IMG/VR virus record: IMGVR_UViG_3300032268_001605
Span: 1 to 64,000 of that record
Reading direction: 5' to 3' (one strand)
From: a virus
DNA length: 64,000 bases
In this document: one piece after another, positions 3,164-62,547 of the stretch
Numbering within the stretch: position 1 is the stretch's first letter
Layout of the letters: every line of letters starts with the position of its first letter
Translations under genes and position numbers: made by a program
Notes under the pieces: generated by a model
What the model was told of the DNA's origin: nothing
The model's input: only the letters and a program-made list of their open reading frames with translations
The model's database searches: none

Positions 3164-3796
3164 TTATAAATTTTTATTTCTGAATAAAACATTACCCATA
3201 TCTTGATGTGGTAAATCCTCAAAAACCACCTCAAAGTTATTAATTTCTAGAAATTCTTTGTATTGTGGATAAAGTAAAACATTTTCATATGTCTCAATCA
3301 GGGAAACTTCTGTGTAGAGATATCTTGTTTTAGAGAGTGTTGTGATAGAATTTTTCAAAACGCTTGGTTCGGCCCCCTGCATATCCAACCACATTAAATC
3401 AATTTTTTCTATTTTCTCTTGTTCACAGAAGTCATCTAAAGTTATAGATTCTATTATTCTTTCCACATTAAAAGTTATTTGTGGATGAACCTGTAAGTGG
3501 TCTTTGGGTTTTAAGAGTGACGATGAAGCAAAAATTTGTCCAAATCTATCACTTATAAAAATGTTCTGCTGACCAGTTTCTGATGAGAGTGCTTTTTTGA
3601 AAAGATTCAAATTTTTGTATTGATAAAGTTTCTGAGAACAGAAATTAAATAGTTCATCAACTGGTTCGAAAGCATATACTTTACCGTAAGTAAATCTATC
3701 ACAGAAGAACTGTGTATCACTACCATCGAAAGCGCCAGCTTCAACTATTATTGAGTCTAAACTTAAATTATTAATTATCCAATCTTGTATTTTCAT
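3164..3796 (-). CDS. FkbM-family methyltransferase
   Basis: [31 protein letters not shown]. Confidence 0.9.
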
Positions 3797-34002: not shown

Positions 34003-36294
34003 ATGGCGAATATATCAACTAATACTACCACAGGCGAATTAATATTAAGTGACTCTTGGTCTATATCAGCAACCGGACCCAGTGGACCACCTCAGTTTTC
34101 TCAAGCTGGTGATGAATTTATCTACAGTTATATAAATTTAGAACACGTTGAGACTCTTAAAAATTTCAACTTTGATTACACTGGGCAAACCGAATTGAGA
34201 TATTTAGAAGTTTACTACCGAATTAGTAGAGATCAAATTGCATGGACAGATTGGTTATCAATCACAGATAATAAACTTACACTTAGAAATGATTCTATAA
34301 GCTTTTATGAAAATACTACACGTATCACTAACTTTCCACCATTTAGTTCAAGAGACACTATGTTTCTTGACCTTAAGTTTACAAGAGAGGGACTTTCGAA
34401 TATTGGAAACATAAAATTACTAGAATATCAACTTCAAGGAACACTTGAGAGGAATATAGTAGACGGACTTAGTCAAGTTGCGTTAACAACCACTACCGAC
34501 CCGGTTATAATAAAACCACCGTTTATTTATAAAGTTTTCAAAATTGAAGATATTGAAATCATTTCAAATAGCACAATAGATGTAGACTTTACAGTCAAAT
34601 ATAGATTTTCACAAGATTATGGTAAATCTGTTACAGACTGGGAATTCTTAACAAAAGAAAATATAAGTTCAGCTAGAATTACACCAATTAGATTTTTCCA
34701 AATTGAATACCTCCTGCAAGTTAACAACACATCAGTAATTATCTATGACATCAACCTAATTGGGGATTTTCAAAACGTGAGCCTAGACTACTTCAAAACT
34801 AATTTATATGGAATTCGAGAAGATTGCAATTGTTTGAAATTGGGTATCGTAAATGATCCATCGACTTTTCCCGAAATTCATCCCGGTGTAGAGATTAAAA
34901 CACTACCTACTGGCGTGGAAGCTCTTTCACCTCTACCCCAATTATCAAATGAACAACAGGCAAACCTGTTTAAACCTTACCAATTACAACAAGCTACTGA
35001 CTTGCTGAATAAAATGAGTAATGATGCTAATTCAATTTTCGGACACGAGGTTGTTTATTTTCTAACTGACCCAGATAAAAAAGGAATTGATTACTCTTTC
35101 CATGAATATCAACTCTATAACTTTGTATCTGAATGTCTTATTAAAGTTTCTGTAGAAAATAATCAATTTCCTGAGAATACCGGAGCTATAAACCAATTCG
35201 ACCTCTCACTTTTTGACTCTTTTGAAATTCATATTCCTAAAAAAGTTTTTAAAGAATCATTTGGTGCAGATAAAAGACCATCTAAAGAAGACTTCTTGTG
35301 GTTTTGCGATATAAATAAAATGTTTCTTGTAGAACACTCACAAGCTTTTAGAAGTTTCAATAATAATTCTATCTATTATAAACTCATGTTGAAAAAATAC
35401 AATCAAAAAGCAAATGTTATTGGTAATAATAAAACAATTTCAGATAAACTCAATGCACTCACAAGAAATTCAACTATTGATGAGTTATTTGGATTAGAAA
35501 ATCAACAAGATAAAGACTCTGTTGCTAACCAAAATCAATTTAGAACACTCACTCAAGACCCAGTCAGATCTATTATCAGTGCACAAATTGTTAAAGAATT
35601 TGTCTTCAATGCAGAGAATATAATAAGCAATTACCATTACGACCTATCCACTGTAAACTTTACAGCAACACAGTCTAACCCAGCAGTAATCTATCAAAAC
35701 TTCAAAAGATATTTCAATGAAGGTAGTAACCTCTCTTTTATGTGTTGGTTTAATATTAATAACTTTGCTATAAACGATAATTATCATCTTTTTAACTACT
35801 ATGATAACACCAATCTTTTTGGTTTTGATGTTAACATAACAAATAATATTTCTACCGTGAAGTGGAACTCCAATAGTTACTCTATGACACTCAATAACTC
35901 ACTTGAAGAAGAAACTTGGTATGGTTATTTAGTAAATGTGAACCAAAGACAAAGAAAAATAACCCAATACATCTATAAAAGAAATGTAGATGATGAAGAA
36001 GATGCAGAACAATTGACATCAACCCACTTGAGACAAGTTTATAAAATGGAAGAGGACTTGACACCAGTAATATTCACCTTAGATGGTATTGAAGCTAAGT
36101 TATTAAGTTCTGACATGAAAATTACCAATATTAGACTATTCACTGAAACAGTACCTGAAACAGAAATTAATAAACTTATGAACCAGAATATACTGAGAGA
36201 TGATACTAAATATTTACTATTAGGTGATAACGCTAATAAAAAATTAGTCCTACCTAATTTTTCAATTGGTCAAATTGGTGAAGGTGAGGTTTAA
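34003..36294 (+). CDS. Large putative virion structural protein (central region resembles T4 gp14-like neck protein)
   Basis: G..V.YF, FEIHIPK..F, P...D..W, YYKL.L.KY; beta-rich termini; TATATA late-type element upstream. Confidence 0.55.
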   Translation: MANISTNTTTGELILSDSWSISATGPSGPPQFSQAGDEFIYSYINLEHVETLKNFNFDYTGQTELRYLEVYYRISRDQIAWTDWLSITDNKLTLRNDSISFYENTTRITNFPPFSSRDTMFLDLKFTREGLSNIGNIKLLEYQLQGTLERNIVDGLSQVALTTTTDPVIIKPPFIYKVFKIEDIEIISNSTIDVDFTVKYRFSQDYGKSVTDWEFLTKENISSARITPIRFFQIEYLLQVNNTSVIIYDINLIGDFQNVSLDYFKTNLYGIREDCNCLKLGIVNDPSTFPEIHPGVEIKTLPTGVEALSPLPQLSNEQQANLFKPYQLQQATDLLNKMSNDANSIFGHEVVYFLTDPDKKGIDYSFHEYQLYNFVSECLIKVSVENNQFPENTGAINQFDLSLFDSFEIHIPKKVFKESFGADKRPSKEDFLWFCDINKMFLVEHSQAFRSFNNNSIYYKLMLKKYNQKANVIGNNKTISDKLNALTRNSTIDELFGLENQQDKDSVANQNQFRTLTQDPVRSIISAQIVKEFVFNAENIISNYHYDLSTVNFTATQSNPAVIYQNFKRYFNEGSNLSFMCWFNINNFAINDNYHLFNYYDNTNLFGFDVNITNNISTVKWNSNSYSMTLNNSLEEETWYGYLVNVNQRQRKITQYIYKRNVDDEEDAEQLTSTHLRQVYKMEEDLTPVIFTLDGIEAKLLSSDMKITNIRLFTETVPETEINKLMNQNILRDDTKYLLLGDNANKKLVLPNFSIGQIGEGEV

Positions 36295-36307
36295 AAATAA
36301 AAATACT

Positions 36308-36711
36308 ATGGATTTAAATAAGAATTGGACAAGGGAAGATAATGATAAAATGAGAGAATTTATAAAAGAAAATAAATCTCCTGAATTTATAAGAAACTAT
36401 TTTAAAAATGATAAGCTTTTTTATCACCCAAAAAAAAAATACTATCAAAGTAAAAAACCTCAGTTATACCAACATTCAAAAAGAAAATAGAAAATTTTGA
36501 GGGGTACATTACTGAAATAAAATATGAAGAATTAAAAACAGATTTTTCTTTTGATTTTGAAAAATCATCTTTTTTTGAAGACGAATTCAACTACATATAT
36601 AAATTTCAAACCATTTCTGGTAATAGATACGTTGTTGACTTTATTTACTTAAAAGATACAATCGGTGAGTGCAAAAATGAGAATATATACAATATATCAT
36701 TTACACGATAG
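36308..36711 (+). pseudogene. Frameshifted hypothetical gene
   Basis: MDLNKNW... frame stops at 36490; the -1 frame opens within the A6 run 36452-36457 and continues (TSVIPTFKKK...SFTR) to TAG 36711. Confidence 0.5.
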
Positions 36712-36832: not shown

Positions 36833-38317
36833 ATGAACAATCAGGAAAAATTGAATAAATTAGACTACCTGAGGAAAAAAGCTTCTGAATTGAAAATGGA
36901 CGTTGATTACTATAACAGTCTCCAATTATCGCTGAAGTTGATCCTTAACGGTAGTTATTTTTAGCCCCCACTAGCAATAGTGGGGGTGATTTAAGGAGCA
37001 TTCGCCACGCCATATTTTATACTTTTCAATCCAAATGTAGCAGGCACAATAACAGCAGAAGGTCGTAATCTAACCAAAACCATGTCTGATGACAATGAAA
37101 GATATTGGTATACTATGTGGCATACTGAATCTTGGGTTCATGAAAAACTTAAGATTAAAAATGTTACACAAATACCTGATAATCAACATGTTAGTGTCTA
37201 TGGGGATACTGACAGCGTCTTTGTAGGATTTGAACCAGCAATCAATTCTTGTGAGTGGAAGAATCAATTATTTAATTCTGAATACTTGAATTCAGTTGAT
37301 AAACCTTTTACTATACTTACTAAGTCTAAATTTAAGGCTAAGTTTTCTAATTCTAACCTACAGTCAGCCATACTAATTGATAAGTTAGATGATGTAACTG
37401 AAAACAAAATAAAGATTGCTTTACAAAAATCCAAGGTAGTTCTGGTTGATGGTGAGTTTGTCAAAGATTGGAATTTAGATAAAATCTTAAATGATTACCC
37501 CTTAGAGGTTTATTATAATTGGCAAAGAGAACTAGACTTCATTCACGGGATTGACAAAGTAAGGTTCGCAGATTATTTTAAACAGTGTTTAGATGATTTG
37601 GCAGCTTCCTACGGTGTTGACAACAAACAAGATTTTGAGTTAGAGAGGGTTTCTGAATCAATTATTAATATTGCTAAGAAGAAGTATATTCAACATATTG
37701 TATATGAAGATGGTATACCTTACGATAGATTGACTTACATATTCCCTAAAGGTGTTGAACTCGTTAGATCTTCTACACCTCTATTTGCCAGAGATAAGAT
37801 TATTGGTATCGTTAAATATCTTTTTGAACATCCTGATACCTTCAATATTAAGGAGTTATTGAAACTGGTTAAGAATTTAAGAAAGGAATTTGACTTATGT
37901 GTACCTGATAGAATTGATGAAATATCAATGCAGTCTTCTTGTTCAAAGTATGAAGAAAAGGTTTTGAATGACAAGGATAAATTAGAATTTGCTACGGGTG
38001 CACACTTTGCTGTTAAAGCTAGTGCCCATTTTAACTATCTACTTCATAGAAATAAGAATTTACAATATAAGTATGAGTTTATTAAATCTGGAACAAAGAT
38101 AAAATATTATTATTGCAAAGACAAATCTCTCAATGATATATTTGCTTACATCAGAGGTTCTTTTCCAGTTGAAATGAATCCACCAGAAATAGATCTTGAT
38201 ACACAGTTCGAGAAATGTATCCTATCTCCGATAAATTCGATTATCGAACCCTTGGGATTACCACTAATAAATAAAAGATTATCAGTTGTAATGGATATTT
38301 TTAGTTCTGGGTTTTAA
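36833..38317 (+). CDS. polB: Family B DNA polymerase, C-terminal subunit (fingers/palm/thumb), interrupted by a 36-nt insertion
   Basis: ATG 36833 ...QLSLKLILNGSY | GAFA...AGTITAEGR...YGDTDS...AKKKY...KGVELVRSSTP, all one frame; no exonuclease domain or motif A. Confidence 0.88.
36959..36994 (+). other. 36-nt in-frame insertion with TAG and TAA stops and a perfect GC-rich GCAA-tetraloop hairpin inside polB motif B
   Basis: TTT TAG CCCCCACTA-GCAA-TAGTGGGGG TG ATT TAA between the TAT (Tyr) and GGA (Gly) codons. Confidence 0.85.
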
Positions 38318-38351
38318 AAAAAAAGAGTCACCAAATGGTGACTCTTTTTTT
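38318..38351. terminator. Bidirectional terminator
   Basis: aaaaaagagtcacca-aa-tggtgactctttttt. Confidence 0.8.
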
Positions 38352-42298: not shown

Positions 42299-43678
42299 AT
42301 GATTAAGAACATTCACGAAAAACTAATGGAATCTGTTCAACAAATGTTGATTGACACTAAGGTTTCACTACCTTACTACGGAAGCTTCAATCTGTTCGTC
42401 AATTTTGCTGAAAGAAAAGACATCGATACCTGTGCTGTAAATATGACTGCTAAAGGCATGAATTTCTATTTCAATTCAGAATTCCTCGATAGACTTACTC
42501 AAAAAGAAGTCAACTTCATTACACTTCACGAAGATTTTCACCTTCTTTGGAACCACCCTAAAAGAACAATTACCGGTCAATACGACCACCGACTTTCTAA
42601 CATTGCCCAAGATATGATTATCAACCATATCATTTGGGAAGATATACCTAACTCCTATGTCGAAATACCAAAAGATAAAGATGGTAAGAACATGGCTCTT
42701 TTTATTCCGAAAGAATACACAGGTAAACTAATCTTTGAAGAAGTTTATGAATGGCTAAGAGACGAAAAAGAAAAAAGAGATAAACAGAAACAGTCTCAAC
42801 AATCACAAGATGGTGATGAACAAGGTGATTCTAAAAGTAAAGGCAAAGGCAGTAAAAGTGATAAAAACGGCAATGGTGACCAGAGTAGTGGTGATGGAAA
42901 TGAGAAAGGTGATGATAAGTACGGTCCATATGGTAAGAATCCTAAGAACGAAAAAGAAACTATTGACACCTGGTCATTAGATCAGATTCTTGACAACTTA
43001 GATTCAAATGGAGGTCAATACTTAGATACTCACTTAGGTGATGAAATCCCAGAAGAAATGAGAGAATCTATGGTGAAAGATGCTATGGATAGACTACAAG
43101 CACGTGGACTTTCTGCAGGTAACATCGAGACTACCCTAAACAAACTGAGAAAACAAAGAAAAGATTACTTGAAAGAAATCAAGAGAACTGTTTCTAATTT
43201 GATTTTTGGTACAAAGAAAGAAAAGACTATTAAGAAACCAAATAGAAAAGGTATTCAAGGAGTAAAGGGCAATCGTAAAGTTAAGACTAAGATTAATGTG
43301 GGGCTTGACACCAGTGGCAGCATGGGTGGCCATGGAACGTTCGAAAGAGTTCTTTCTTATGTCTATCAAAACGATATCGAGATTAACTTTATGGAATCTG
43401 ACACACAAGTGAACTGGGTTGAAAAATTAAAGTCTAAAAAACAATTAGAGTCAATACCTATAAAAGGTTTGGGTGGAACTTGCTTGAGCCCGATGATAGA
43501 TTATATCGTTGAACATCACAATGACTGTTCAACAGTTTTACTAACGGACGGATACACTGATTCTTTAGATTTCTCTAAAGTAAAAGGAAATGTTTTGATA
43601 ATTTCTGTTGGTGTCCCTTGTCCAATTCTAAAATCTAATGGTAAGGTTAAACAGATTTGTATTGAAAACACTCATTAA
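42299..43678 (+). CDS. DUF2201-type metallopeptidase-like plus vWA domain protein
   Basis: LHEDFH, NIAQD..IN, disordered linker, DTSGSM, GGT, LTDG. Confidence 0.88.
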   Translation: MIKNIHEKLMESVQQMLIDTKVSLPYYGSFNLFVNFAERKDIDTCAVNMTAKGMNFYFNSEFLDRLTQKEVNFITLHEDFHLLWNHPKRTITGQYDHRLSNIAQDMIINHIIWEDIPNSYVEIPKDKDGKNMALFIPKEYTGKLIFEEVYEWLRDEKEKRDKQKQSQQSQDGDEQGDSKSKGKGSKSDKNGNGDQSSGDGNEKGDDKYGPYGKNPKNEKETIDTWSLDQILDNLDSNGGQYLDTHLGDEIPEEMRESMVKDAMDRLQARGLSAGNIETTLNKLRKQRKDYLKEIKRTVSNLIFGTKKEKTIKKPNRKGIQGVKGNRKVKTKINVGLDTSGSMGGHGTFERVLSYVYQNDIEINFMESDTQVNWVEKLKSKKQLESIPIKGLGGTCLSPMIDYIVEHHNDCSTVLLTDGYTDSLDFSKVKGNVLIISVGVPCPILKSNGKVKQICIENTH

Positions 43679-43708
43679 AAAAAGTCTCACTTAAGTGAGA
43701 CTTTTTTT
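43677..43708. terminator. Bidirectional terminator
   Basis: aaaaaaagtctcac-ttaa-gtgagacttttttt. Confidence 0.8.
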
Positions 43709-45475
43709 AATTTCATATTTGATTTTCCCACAATCCCATACTTTATTTAGATCCAGTTTTGATTCAGACACACCAGTTATAGACTTCTTGAACCCAGACT
43801 TATGTTTTCTAACTCCGTTTAGTACATATTTGTAGTCTGGTTTTGTTTCATATAATTTTATGAATCCGATTTTTTCATATAAATTACCCTGACTCCAATC
43901 TTTATCTGCGTATGAAATTATTCTATTTGGATTATATTCTTTAATAAAATGATTCAATAATTTTGATGCACCACCAACTACATAATGATTTGATATATTG
44001 CAGAATCTAGATAAATTCCATTCATTATTAGCCATTTTTTTTCTACCTTCAAATTTATCGAAAGTCATTACCCCAACTAGTTCATCTTGATAATAGAGCC
44101 CGAAAGATTTATTTATATTTGGATAATCTCCTTGGATATGATTTATTTTAAGAAATTGCCTACAAATGTTATAATCAATTATTTCCTTCACATCACATTT
44201 TCTTGCATGTATTTTAGTAGATAATCCTAAAACGTTCATTATTTGAGATTCTATTATGGATCTTTTGAAATCCCAATCATCTTCCCAAATATTTATAATT
44301 CTAATACCCTTATCTCTAAAACGATTTAATTTATCAATATGGTAATCTTTGCTTCTAAATTTATCGGAATGAAAGTATAATCCATTAAATTCAAAACCAA
44401 TTTTCAAATTCGGAAGATAGATATCAATTTCTAAACCATCACGATACGATTGTATTATTTCACCTCTGAAATTATTTTTTATAAAATTATAAATATCCTT
44501 CTCCTTTATTGATTTATGTTCACCAATTGGATTGCATATTGTACAAATTGACACACCACTTTTTGTCCTTCTAAAAAAGTTATCAGTGTTTATTTCGAAA
44601 TTATTATTACATAAATCACATTTGAATAAACTTATAGAATTACCAACATAGTTTATATAATTTGGATGATTGGCGATATTGAAGTTGTTTCGTCTAAATT
44701 CTTCATTTTGAGATGAATTCTTCACACCGTATTTTAGAATATAATTAAACTCTCTTCTATTCTTTATTTCTTCAGACTGAATTGGATGATAGAATCCATA
44801 CCTTTCCAAATTTGTATTTTTAGTTTTTTCCCTCAATTCAATAGATTTCTGAGGATTAGTGACTCCCCATTTCACCAACAACGTATTGATTGACTTTGAA
44901 AACACATCATTATTTTGTAACGGTGACATATATCCATATCTTTCAAGGTTTGTGTTCTTAATTTTATTTTTAACCTCTTCAGATTTTGATGGTGATGTGA
45001 ATCCATATTTCTCTAAATTAGTTTTTTCTGATTTTTTTTGTTTATCTTCTGATTGTAAGTACCACTCAACACCATATTTTTCCAAATTAGTTTTCTTAAC
45101 CTTTTCTGTATATTCTTCTGATTTTGTATAAATTTCAAATCCATATCTCTCTAAACAAGTTTTTTTTCTTTTATCCACGGAATCTGTAGATGACATATAT
45201 GTCTCCGATCCGTATTTTTCCAAATTTGTTTTTTTTATTTTTTCTTTTACAATTGGAACTTGCGATATATTTGTCACACCATATTTTTCTGTTAGAATTT
45301 CTTTTGACCTTATTGCAGCACATTTTTTAGAGCAACAAAAATTTAAAGCAAAATCTTTAGTACTTCTAGTGTATTTTATCATTTGTACAGAGACAATTGA
45401 ATCACAATAGATACATTTGGCTTCTATCAATTTTCTCGATCCCCTCGAAATATTTGTAACATCACTGATTATCAT
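43691..45475 (-). CDS. Free-standing homing-endonuclease-like protein with TNLE(K/R)YG repeats
   Basis: About 9 K.TNLEKYG-type repeats, CxxC pairs, EIDIY, FEFNGLYFH, WEDDW, NHIQG, LSRFC, ISYAD. Confidence 0.82.
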   Translation of the reverse strand: MIISDVTNISRGSRKLIEAKCIYCDSIVSVQMIKYTRSTKDFALNFCCSKKCAAIRSKEILTEKYGVTNISQVPIVKEKIKKTNLEKYGSETYMSSTDSVDKRKKTCLERYGFEIYTKSEEYTEKVKKTNLEKYGVEWYLQSEDKQKKSEKTNLEKYGFTSPSKSEEVKNKIKNTNLERYGYMSPLQNNDVFSKSINTLLVKWGVTNPQKSIELREKTKNTNLERYGFYHPIQSEEIKNRREFNYILKYGVKNSSQNEEFRRNNFNIANHPNYINYVGNSISLFKCDLCNNNFEINTDNFFRRTKSGVSICTICNPIGEHKSIKEKDIYNFIKNNFRGEIIQSYRDGLEIDIYLPNLKIGFEFNGLYFHSDKFRSKDYHIDKLNRFRDKGIRIINIWEDDWDFKRSIIESQIMNVLGLSTKIHARKCDVKEIIDYNICRQFLKINHIQGDYPNINKSFGLYYQDELVGVMTFDKFEGRKKMANNEWNLSRFCNISNHYVVGGASKLLNHFIKEYNPNRIISYADKDWSQGNLYEKIGFIKLYETKPDYKYVLNGVRKHKSGFKKSITGVSESKLDLNKVWDCGKIKYEIKKSLT

Positions 45476-45602
45476 CTTTCTTAATTTTATTTTTCGTTCT
45501 TTGTTTGTATTTTAGTTCGTTTCTTTTACATTGAACTTTACAAAATTTTTTATTGGGTCTTCCAGCTATTTCGTTCTTACAGTTTCTATATTGACATTTC
45601 AT
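45462..45602 (-). CDS. Small Zn-ribbon protein coupled to the endonuclease gene
   Basis: MKCQYRNC...KKFCKVQC; ATG at 45602 just after TTTTTTAATATATA. Confidence 0.6.
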   Translation of the reverse strand: MKCQYRNCKNEIAGRPNKKFCKVQCKRNELKYKQRTKNKIKKDDNQ

Positions 45603-62516: not shown

Positions 62517-62547
62517 AAAAAGACTCACTTTAAAGTGAGTCTTTTTT
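62517..62547 (+). terminator. Intrinsic terminator
   Basis: aaaaagactcactt-t-aaagtgagtctttttt palindrome. Confidence 0.8.

Follow-up and report, generated by a model that had tools for sequence, protein, structure and literature searches.

A hairpin-containing insert interrupts motif B of a phage DNA polymerase gene, and comparison of related alleles suggests that ribosomes hop over it. The gene encodes the C-terminal subunit of a split family B DNA polymerase (polB) and lies in positions 1 to 64,000 of IMG/VR virus record IMGVR_UViG_3300032268_001605, the stretch of 64,000 nucleotides (nt) that was analyzed here and is referred to as the window. We consider it fairly probable that the 36 bases between the Tyr and Gly codons of motif B are a coding gap that is skipped by the ribosome, and that they constitute a bypass cassette analogous to, not homologous with, that of gene 60/mobA in phage T4. 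After the gap the same frame resumes with GGA GCA TTC GCC and stays open to position 38317 (Table 1). Excision of the 36 nt restores KLILNGSYGAFA and yields a product of 482 amino acids (42 + 440), and the Pfam match to DNA_pol_B (PF00136) spans the gap. When the excision is moved by one base a stop arises, TAA on the left and TGA on the right. An initial annotation made from the sequence alone had described the insert, the restored motif, the 482-residue product and the effect of a one-base shift, and the sequence proved to be as described, including the stem of 9 base pairs with its GNRA loop (GCAA) right after the UAG. The same gene is uninterrupted in two relatives of 634 and 642 kilobases (kb), L001 and L002, which read AGT TAT GGA GCA (...LNGSYGAFAT...), as the window does upon excision. 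The source contig comprises 139,250 bases, is AT-rich (30% G+C) and has an IMG/VR completeness estimate of about 20%. The nearest named relatives of this virus are uncultured phages of 634 and 642 kb.

That the gap is an artefact of assembly or sequencing has a negligible probability. It is covered by the probable source run only: run X1, assembled a second time (Logan contig, depth 16.6), contains the gap with 0 differences and no joint, and as this run probably stems from the source sample it does not lend independent support. The contigs of three further runs, X2, X3 and X7, do not extend over the gap and speak neither for nor against it. Still, two assemblers agree on the bases, and 63 other natural versions of the gap come from other samples.

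These other versions were obtained in two ways. Sixty related loci were found in IMG/VR by protein similarity, and for each allele we sought the deletion that best restores the consensus YYNALQLALKLVLNGSYGAFA. Most of the 60 alleles bear a small insert of their own near motif B, some in frame and with stops, many frame-shifting. When exactly the gap is deleted, the conserved motif reappears, both in the window and in 31/31 other gap-bearing IMG/VR alleles; uninterrupted alleles exist too. Because the junction in the window at first looked as if it had no codon repeat, metagenomes were also scanned with a pattern aimed at this Tyr-Gly junction. This gave 51 stretches, 42 of which are distinct, and together with the IMG/VR set 64 distinct gaps. 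Note that the pattern demanded a run of five C (C5), a run of five G (G5) and a 6-nt spacer; these features are fixed by the search in that subset and count as evidence in the IMG/VR set only, which was ascertained by protein similarity. Also note that many gap elements share ancestry and that the counts given here are not independent events. The 64 gaps are 36-48 nt long and sit at six codon junctions around motif B (Ala-Leu, Leu-Lys, Val-Leu, Gly-Ser, Ser-Tyr and Tyr-Gly), all within ten codons. Since their lengths fall in all three phases (22/23/19), read-through in frame or a single frameshift cannot be the general answer. Counts of open frames across the gap are uninformative for gaps as short as these.

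The hairpins of the family have folding energies of -16 to -31.5 kcal/mol, with about -19 kcal/mol for the one in the window. Their loops comprise 4 nt in 50/64 gaps and are of the GNRA type in 27/64 and UUCG in 4/64. Stem positions 6-10 are canonical in 62/64, 63/64, 63/64, 59/63 and 45/47 gaps (93-98%) over 40 distinct 5' arms and, judged by this complementarity, the gap stems covary across the family. Most hairpins begin 5-6 nt beyond the codon that precedes the gap, the proposed take-off codon; in 27 of the 64 gaps pairing reaches up to 0-1 nt from that codon, and the window is not among these. An in-frame stop occurs at the first codon after take-off (+1) in 5/64 gaps and at the second (+2) in 47/64, that is in 52/64 together, compared with 0-1/64 in each of the other two frames. 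The arrangement seen in the window, a sense codon followed by a stop that abuts the hairpin, is thus shared by 47/64 gaps. The initial annotation had noted that a Phe codon before the UAG does not fit a textbook hop; the misfit is real but shared by the family. One pair of sequence versions differs in length only: the gap of L044 and that of L046/L047 are otherwise identical, with one G more or less in the G-run (42 versus 41 nt). This could be a sequencing error in the homopolymer; otherwise the gap tolerates a change of one base in length, which a hop would permit.

Within its contig the hairpin stands alone. The exact 22-mer occurs once in the window (0 expected from 100 shuffles), once in the 139,250-base contig and has 0 matches in IMG/VR; the further copies considered by the initial annotation are thus missing from the contig, and an intact second polB was not found there either. 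Among the contig's 138 listings of perfect hairpins (at least 8 base pairs), in which a single hairpin can recur with different stem and loop lengths, it has the only C5/G5 stem. The pattern CCCCC-N6-26-GGGGG has one site each, at polB, in the related genomes G001, G004 and G005, while G003, which carries an uninterrupted allele, has no match. In G002 there is a second site, an ordinary terminator-like hairpin between convergent genes. A dispersed mobile element of the byp kind was therefore dropped as a candidate. The same applies to an intrinsic terminator: a simple scan does not call the gap hairpin one, and the terminators of the contig are of another kind.

A codon is repeated across the gap. 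In 50/64 cases the triplet that closes the gap, the proposed landing triplet, begins with the same two bases as the take-off codon, compared with 0-4/64 at nine positions slid by 1-9 bases. No such dinucleotide comes earlier after the G-run in 47/64 gaps, whereas shuffled tails would lead one to expect 3.1. At all six junctions the match is in register with codon position 1, and take-off and landing triplets are synonymous in 37/64 gaps. At the Tyr-Gly junction the landing triplets are TAC (15), TAT (1), TAA (13, including the window), AAC (7), AAA (2), GAC (2) and AGC, CAA and TCA (one each); UAU/UAC is thus paired with UAA in 13 of 43 distinct gaps, and UAU with UAC/UAU in 16 more. The pairs at the other five junctions are CTT/CTC to CTA (12), GCT to GCT/GCA (4), GTT to GTA/GTT (2), GGT to GGT (2) and TCT to TCA (1). 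Pairs that differ in the third base have U or C there in the take-off codon and A or, for Tyr, C in the landing triplet. By standard wobble rules, pairing would be weaker at take-off and stronger at landing. The comparative data favour the hop from Tyr UAU to near-cognate UAA that had been put forward initially. Take-off from the +1 codon, Phe in the window, was rejected: landing triplets track the Tyr codon and not the variable +1 codon, and the only TTT after the hairpin in the window lies in a different frame, which leads to a stop.

The gap might instead be excised from the mRNA by a hairpin-recognizing endonuclease of phage or host together with a ligase, as a protein-assisted micro-intron, which we regard as unlikely. 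Hairpins of conserved shape and free sequence, with stable tetraloops being common, would suit a structure-specific enzyme, any-phase gap lengths fit splicing as well as hopping, and in-frame stops just inside the 5' border are usual in phage introns. However, excision needs no 3' repeat of the last exon codon, let alone one that is always in codon phase and mostly the first such site after the hairpin. Moreover, the alignment of related polB genes contains uninterrupted sites and gaps with covarying hairpins and no longer or full intron at this site, so that the idea of an intron remnant finds no backing in gaps of 36-48 nt throughout. A search of Rfam with the gap gave no known RNA family (at E ≤ 1 only two chance snoRNA matches, best E-value 0.79), and we know of no bacterial system that removes 36-48-nt inserts from mRNA.

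The initial annotation had not claimed any link to a homing endonuclease, and such a link emerged from the comparison of close relatives. L017 and L018 encode identical downstream proteins and yet carry different gaps at different junctions. L017 on the one hand and L018/L020 on the other share 92-95% DNA identity from 4 nt before the resume codon onward, and farther upstream this identity is not regained until the end of the adjacent infC-like gene. Between these borders, L018/L020 contain an open reading frame (ORF) of 375 codons on the opposite strand that is absent from L017 and whose product matches DUF7487 (E = 1e-19) and phrog_3339, 'homing endonuclease' (E = 4e-13). Homologs of this nuclease reside upstream and on the opposite strand in 18/32 distinct gap-bearing loci versus 0/17 uninterrupted rows (Fisher p = 4e-5, not corrected for shared ancestry). 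The nuclease gene starts 225-270 nt before the resume codon, or farther away when decayed, and one further locus bears a remnant. On the polymerase tree, the junction label of the gap needs 22 changes (minimum possible 6) and presence or absence of the gap 13, at least 8 of which are forced by well-supported branches. The mosaic of L017 and L018, the association of nuclease and gap and the junction changes on the tree point, by sequence comparison, to movement of nuclease gene, 5' gene end and gap between phages as a block. Part of our best reading is that the gap is a remnant or cargo of a homing-endonuclease cassette targeting motif B DNA: the insert would presumably spoil the nuclease target, and the hop would keep the polymerase working. 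In the genome of the window, the nuclease gene would no longer be located beside the gap; thirteen other gap-bearing loci likewise have no adjacent nuclease gene. No relatives of the window above about 80% DNA identity were found, and a recombination border for the window is therefore not mappable. Weak DUF7487 homologs (E = 4e-4 to 5e-11) are encoded elsewhere, at 44891-45478 on the minus strand of the window and at 68830-69210, 74777-75379 and 126431-126769 of the contig.

In the hop that we favour, a ribosome on the 42-codon 5' piece would meet a very stable hairpin, the C5:G5 clamp of which begins 6 nt after UAU. Decoding would stall with UAU in the P site, peptidyl-tRNA(Tyr) would release and the mRNA would slide through until the tRNA re-pairs at UAA, the first UA-triplet after the hairpin; decoding would then resume at GGA. 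The product would be the 482-residue subunit with motif B intact (KLILNGSY-GAFA) and the junction peptide LILNGSYGAFATPYFILFNPNVAGTITAEGR. We infer the hop itself, its efficiency and the role of the hairpin in the stall from comparative data. The nascent chain of 42 residues has the right length for a tunnel signal; its sequence is that of the finger helix of the polymerase itself and is alike whether or not an allele bears a gap. No tRNA genes were found in the window. An altered genetic code was also considered and rejected: the 112 long ORFs of the contig end with TAA (82), TAG (17) and TGA (13), and the gap holds two different stops.

Several observations weigh against this interpretation. 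The landing UAA in the window is a two-out-of-three match to UAU and not a synonymous codon, and 14/43 Tyr-Gly landing triplets (AAC, AAA, GAC, AGC, CAA and TCA) do not start with UA. Some of these are a single base away from a TAC-landing relative, as in L111 compared with L096. In the gaps of L027, L032, L038 and L111, with AAC or AGC as landing triplets, TAA or TAG is found one base upstream of the expected register (TTAAC GGA, TTAGC GGA), and it is hard to see how these gaps would resume in frame. The +1 codon of the window, TTT, is a common sense codon (37 per 1000 in the contig) and neither a stop nor a rare codon as in T4, the stop following one codon later; 12/64 gaps lack a stop at both +1 and +2. 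Counted from the first base of take-off, the hairpin has its first pair at +9/+10. The genes of this genome do not make use of Shine-Dalgarno sites, so the corresponding signal of T4 is probably without a counterpart. There is no nuclease homolog within 3 kb upstream of the gap in the window. Finally, with a contig that is only about 20% complete, a second intact copy of the C-subunit gene may lie elsewhere in the genome.

Two of these points can be given a reading within the proposed mechanism. According to the available part of a study on E. coli ribosomes, stem-loops block the A site at 11-12 nt (PMC7282821). Since the hairpin starts closer than this, a ribosome at take-off would have begun to push against the C:G clamp, or else the hairpin would form again within the A site. 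As regards the second point, the initial annotation had drawn attention to a Shine-Dalgarno-like GGGGGUG just upstream of the UAA. G5 does end 5 nt before the TAA, but such a role has become doubtful, as the leaders are rich in A and GGAG precedes only 1/112 long ORFs of the contig; a clamp is therefore a likelier role for the G5 arm than pairing with rRNA. A-rich leaders without Shine-Dalgarno motifs are typical of Bacteroidota-type initiation, and this leader style hints at Bacteroidota as host group.

Another explanation would be that the gene is dead or dying in the genome of the window only, i.e. that the nuclease was lost, that a TAC landing triplet mutated to TAA and that another copy is encoded in the unsequenced 80%. 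The absence of a nuclease gene and the low completeness of the contig are in line with this, and TAA is indeed one base away from the commonest landing triplet, TAC, with close pairs such as L085/L089 differing only there. We nevertheless consider decay quite improbable. Both pieces of the gene have open frames and are conserved; the downstream one shares 81% identity with that of the nearest relative, L004, and its end branch of 0.11 is not a long one (median 0.13), in agreement with the initial judgement that the flanks are undegraded. Furthermore, TAA-landing gaps adjoin full-length nuclease genes in at least eight distinct loci (L101, L109/L118, L097, L084, L114, L081, L100 and L098), and this recurrence identifies TAA landing, at the level of sequence, as a working variant and not a sign of decay. 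Two gapped relatives that are 98% complete, G001 and G002, have a single polB C-subunit gene and no other copy, and the 139-kb contig of the window contains neither an N-subunit gene nor a second C-subunit gene and has no second match to PF00136. The 27 codons upstream of all junctions are free of stops in gap-bearing and uninterrupted alleles, with ratios of non-synonymous to synonymous polymorphism (pN/pS) of 0.28 in 31 gap-bearing and 0.34 in 14 uninterrupted alleles. Judged by these ratios, the 5' piece is under purifying selection in gap-bearing alleles.

The gene could also be expressed as two polypeptides that assemble, a peptide of 43 residues ending at UAG and a protein of 440 residues started at or near GGA. 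This polymerase already tolerates being made in pieces: in the two 98%-complete relatives an N-subunit gene of about 500 codons, for the exonuclease and the beginning of the polymerase domain, is separated by 96-133 kb from the single C-subunit gene. In addition, AAGGAG spans the end of the gap in the window. Yet separate translation of the downstream part, which the initial annotation had listed among its options, is hard to reconcile with the fact that 45/64 gaps, the window included, contain no ATG, GTG or TTG that follows the last stop in the resume frame. In the window one has to go 29 codons downstream, past conserved residues, to reach an ATG, and Shine-Dalgarno sites are not used by the genes of the contig. 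The gap also shifts among six junctions within ten codons, which would be unexpected for a fixed split between two proteins. Altogether, we rate two assembling polypeptides as slightly more improbable still than decay.

Compared with known systems, the polymerase gap most closely resembles that of T4 gene 60, which according to the T4 record consists of 46 codons, GGA, TAG, a UUCG hairpin, a gap of 50 nt and a second GGA. In both cases an essential replication gene that is already split in two is affected, some 40 codons of the downstream gene precede the gap (42 here, 46 in T4), the landing triplet repeats the take-off codon, in the window in its first two bases, a stop resides at the start of the gap and a stable tetraloop hairpin is followed by an A/U-rich 3' part. 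As with T4 mobA, a homing-endonuclease gene is encoded just upstream, it never occurs without the gap and the gap outlives loss of the nuclease; for MobA, the available part of the preprint by Manning and Atkins describes bypass without nuclease and never the reverse (bioRxiv 10.1101/2022.08.31.505936). On the other hand, the host gene is that for motif B of polB and not a topoisomerase gene, and the gaps measure 36-48 nt instead of 50. The stop is usually positioned one codon past the A-site codon and not within the A site, and the hairpin usually begins 5-6 nt beyond the take-off codon, which in T4 is part of the hairpin. Six junctions are used here, Shine-Dalgarno sites are not used in the genome of the window and the landing triplet of the window is a stop. 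The nucleases belong to DUF7487/phrog_3339 and do not match HNH in Pfam, unlike the T4 mobA fragment. BLASTP of the DUF7487 nuclease against the T4 60.1 fragment gave E = 0.25, in a record that holds fragments only and of which the 37-residue mobA fragment was not compared. Because gene, nuclease family, gap length and stop placement all differ, we conclude on sequence grounds that the gap, which would work like gene 60/mobA, is not a member of that element.

A second point of comparison is provided by the byp elements from mitochondria of Magnusiomyces capitatus, reportedly described by Lang et al. in 2014 as short gaps with a hairpin and matching take-off and landing triplets. Their gap size is similar and the A-site codon need not be a stop, just as in the phages. 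In contrast, byps are dispersed over many genes of one genome, while the hairpin gap described here occurs at one spot in one gene, and we know of no nuclease link for byps. Group I introns and inteins in phage polB are likewise selfish elements that settle in the best conserved motifs and are eliminated when the gene is expressed; 36 nt are, however, far too short for a ribozyme, and the stops exclude an intein. Byps are mentioned in the introduction of the preprint by Manning and Atkins (bioRxiv 10.1101/2022.08.31.505936).

For decades T4 gene 60 has been the one bacterial example of long-range ribosomal bypassing. In the available part of the 2022 preprint, relatives of gene 60 are confined to the same topoisomerase gene, the cassette is still called unique and the word 'polymerase' is absent (bioRxiv 10.1101/2022.08.31.505936). 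Our literature search returned no description of the polymerase gap, and the supplements of that preprint may list more cases. On balance, we lean towards the view that the polB gene of huge freshwater phages harbours a second, independently evolved natural family of long-range programmed bypassing. It would be carried by a homing-endonuclease cassette, do without Shine-Dalgarno pairing, be driven mainly by a C5:G5-clamped tetraloop hairpin 6 nt after take-off and be able to land peptidyl-tRNA(Tyr) on the stop UAA. If this is true, 64 natural variants at six junctions are a ready-made mutational series for the mechanism. If the family is unrelated to that of T4, gaps that are hopped over would be a repeatable solution for selfish DNA in the most conserved part of an essential gene. 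The signals needed would be a codon repeat and a hairpin, and an A-site stop, a Shine-Dalgarno site and a fixed gap length would be dispensable. What the window contributes is an analysis of landing at the Tyr-Gly junction, a genome whose genes do without Shine-Dalgarno sites and an allele that has no nuclease gene next to it. There is also a practical side: gene callers split or truncate such polymerase genes, and genomes of huge phages can then seem to be without a working polymerase subunit.

Table 1 Elements of the interrupted polB C-subunit gene in the window (positions of the 64,000-nt stretch)
Feature	Position	Strand	Remarks
5' coding piece, polB C-subunit	36833-36958	+	ATG at 36833; MNNQ...KLILNGSY, 42 codons, first half of motif B
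Proposed take-off codon TAT (Tyr)	36956-36958	+	Last codon before the gap; TAT/TAC here in 43/43 Tyr-Gly gaps
Coding gap, 36 nt	36959-36994	+	Between Tyr and Gly of motif B; absent from uninterrupted L001 and L002
6-nt spacer	36959-36964	+	TTT (36959-36961) and in-frame stop TAG (36962-36964), which abuts the hairpin
Hairpin CCCCCACTA / GCAA / TAGTGGGGG	36965-36986	+	9 base pairs (10 with flanking G-U); C5/G5 stem, GNRA loop
A/U-rich 5-nt spacer TGATT	36987-36991	+	Between hairpin and landing triplet; 4-8 unpaired bases in most gaps of the family
Proposed landing triplet TAA	36992-36994	+	First two bases are those of TAT; first TA after the G-run
3' coding piece, polB C-subunit	36995-38317	+	GAFATPY...YGDTDS..., 440 codons plus stop

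Upstream of the polymerase gene, the window contains an ORF for 763 amino acids (34003-36294), which is syntenic in L063, and one for 74 amino acids (36266-36490); neither product has a Pfam or PHROG match. In L017 (2272-2790) and L020 (3-173) a protein that resembles IF-3, as judged by eye from the sequence, is encoded just upstream of the polB C-subunit gene. The usual terminator-like hairpins of the contig, e.g. at 38318-38351, 43674-43711 and 62517-62546, consist of an A-run, a short GC core and a T-run, are readable on both strands and are often situated between convergent genes, and they are of another kind than the gap hairpin. Intein-like inserts were seen in L004, L048, L051 and L056-L058 at motif C of the same polymerase gene, between YGDTD and S (HTFIANDMLVHN followed by S), about 100-240 nt before the start of the tblastn match. 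Because of these inserts, motif C is a second target of selfish elements in the polB gene. L023 contains about 480 extra bases (3222-3705) at the same place.

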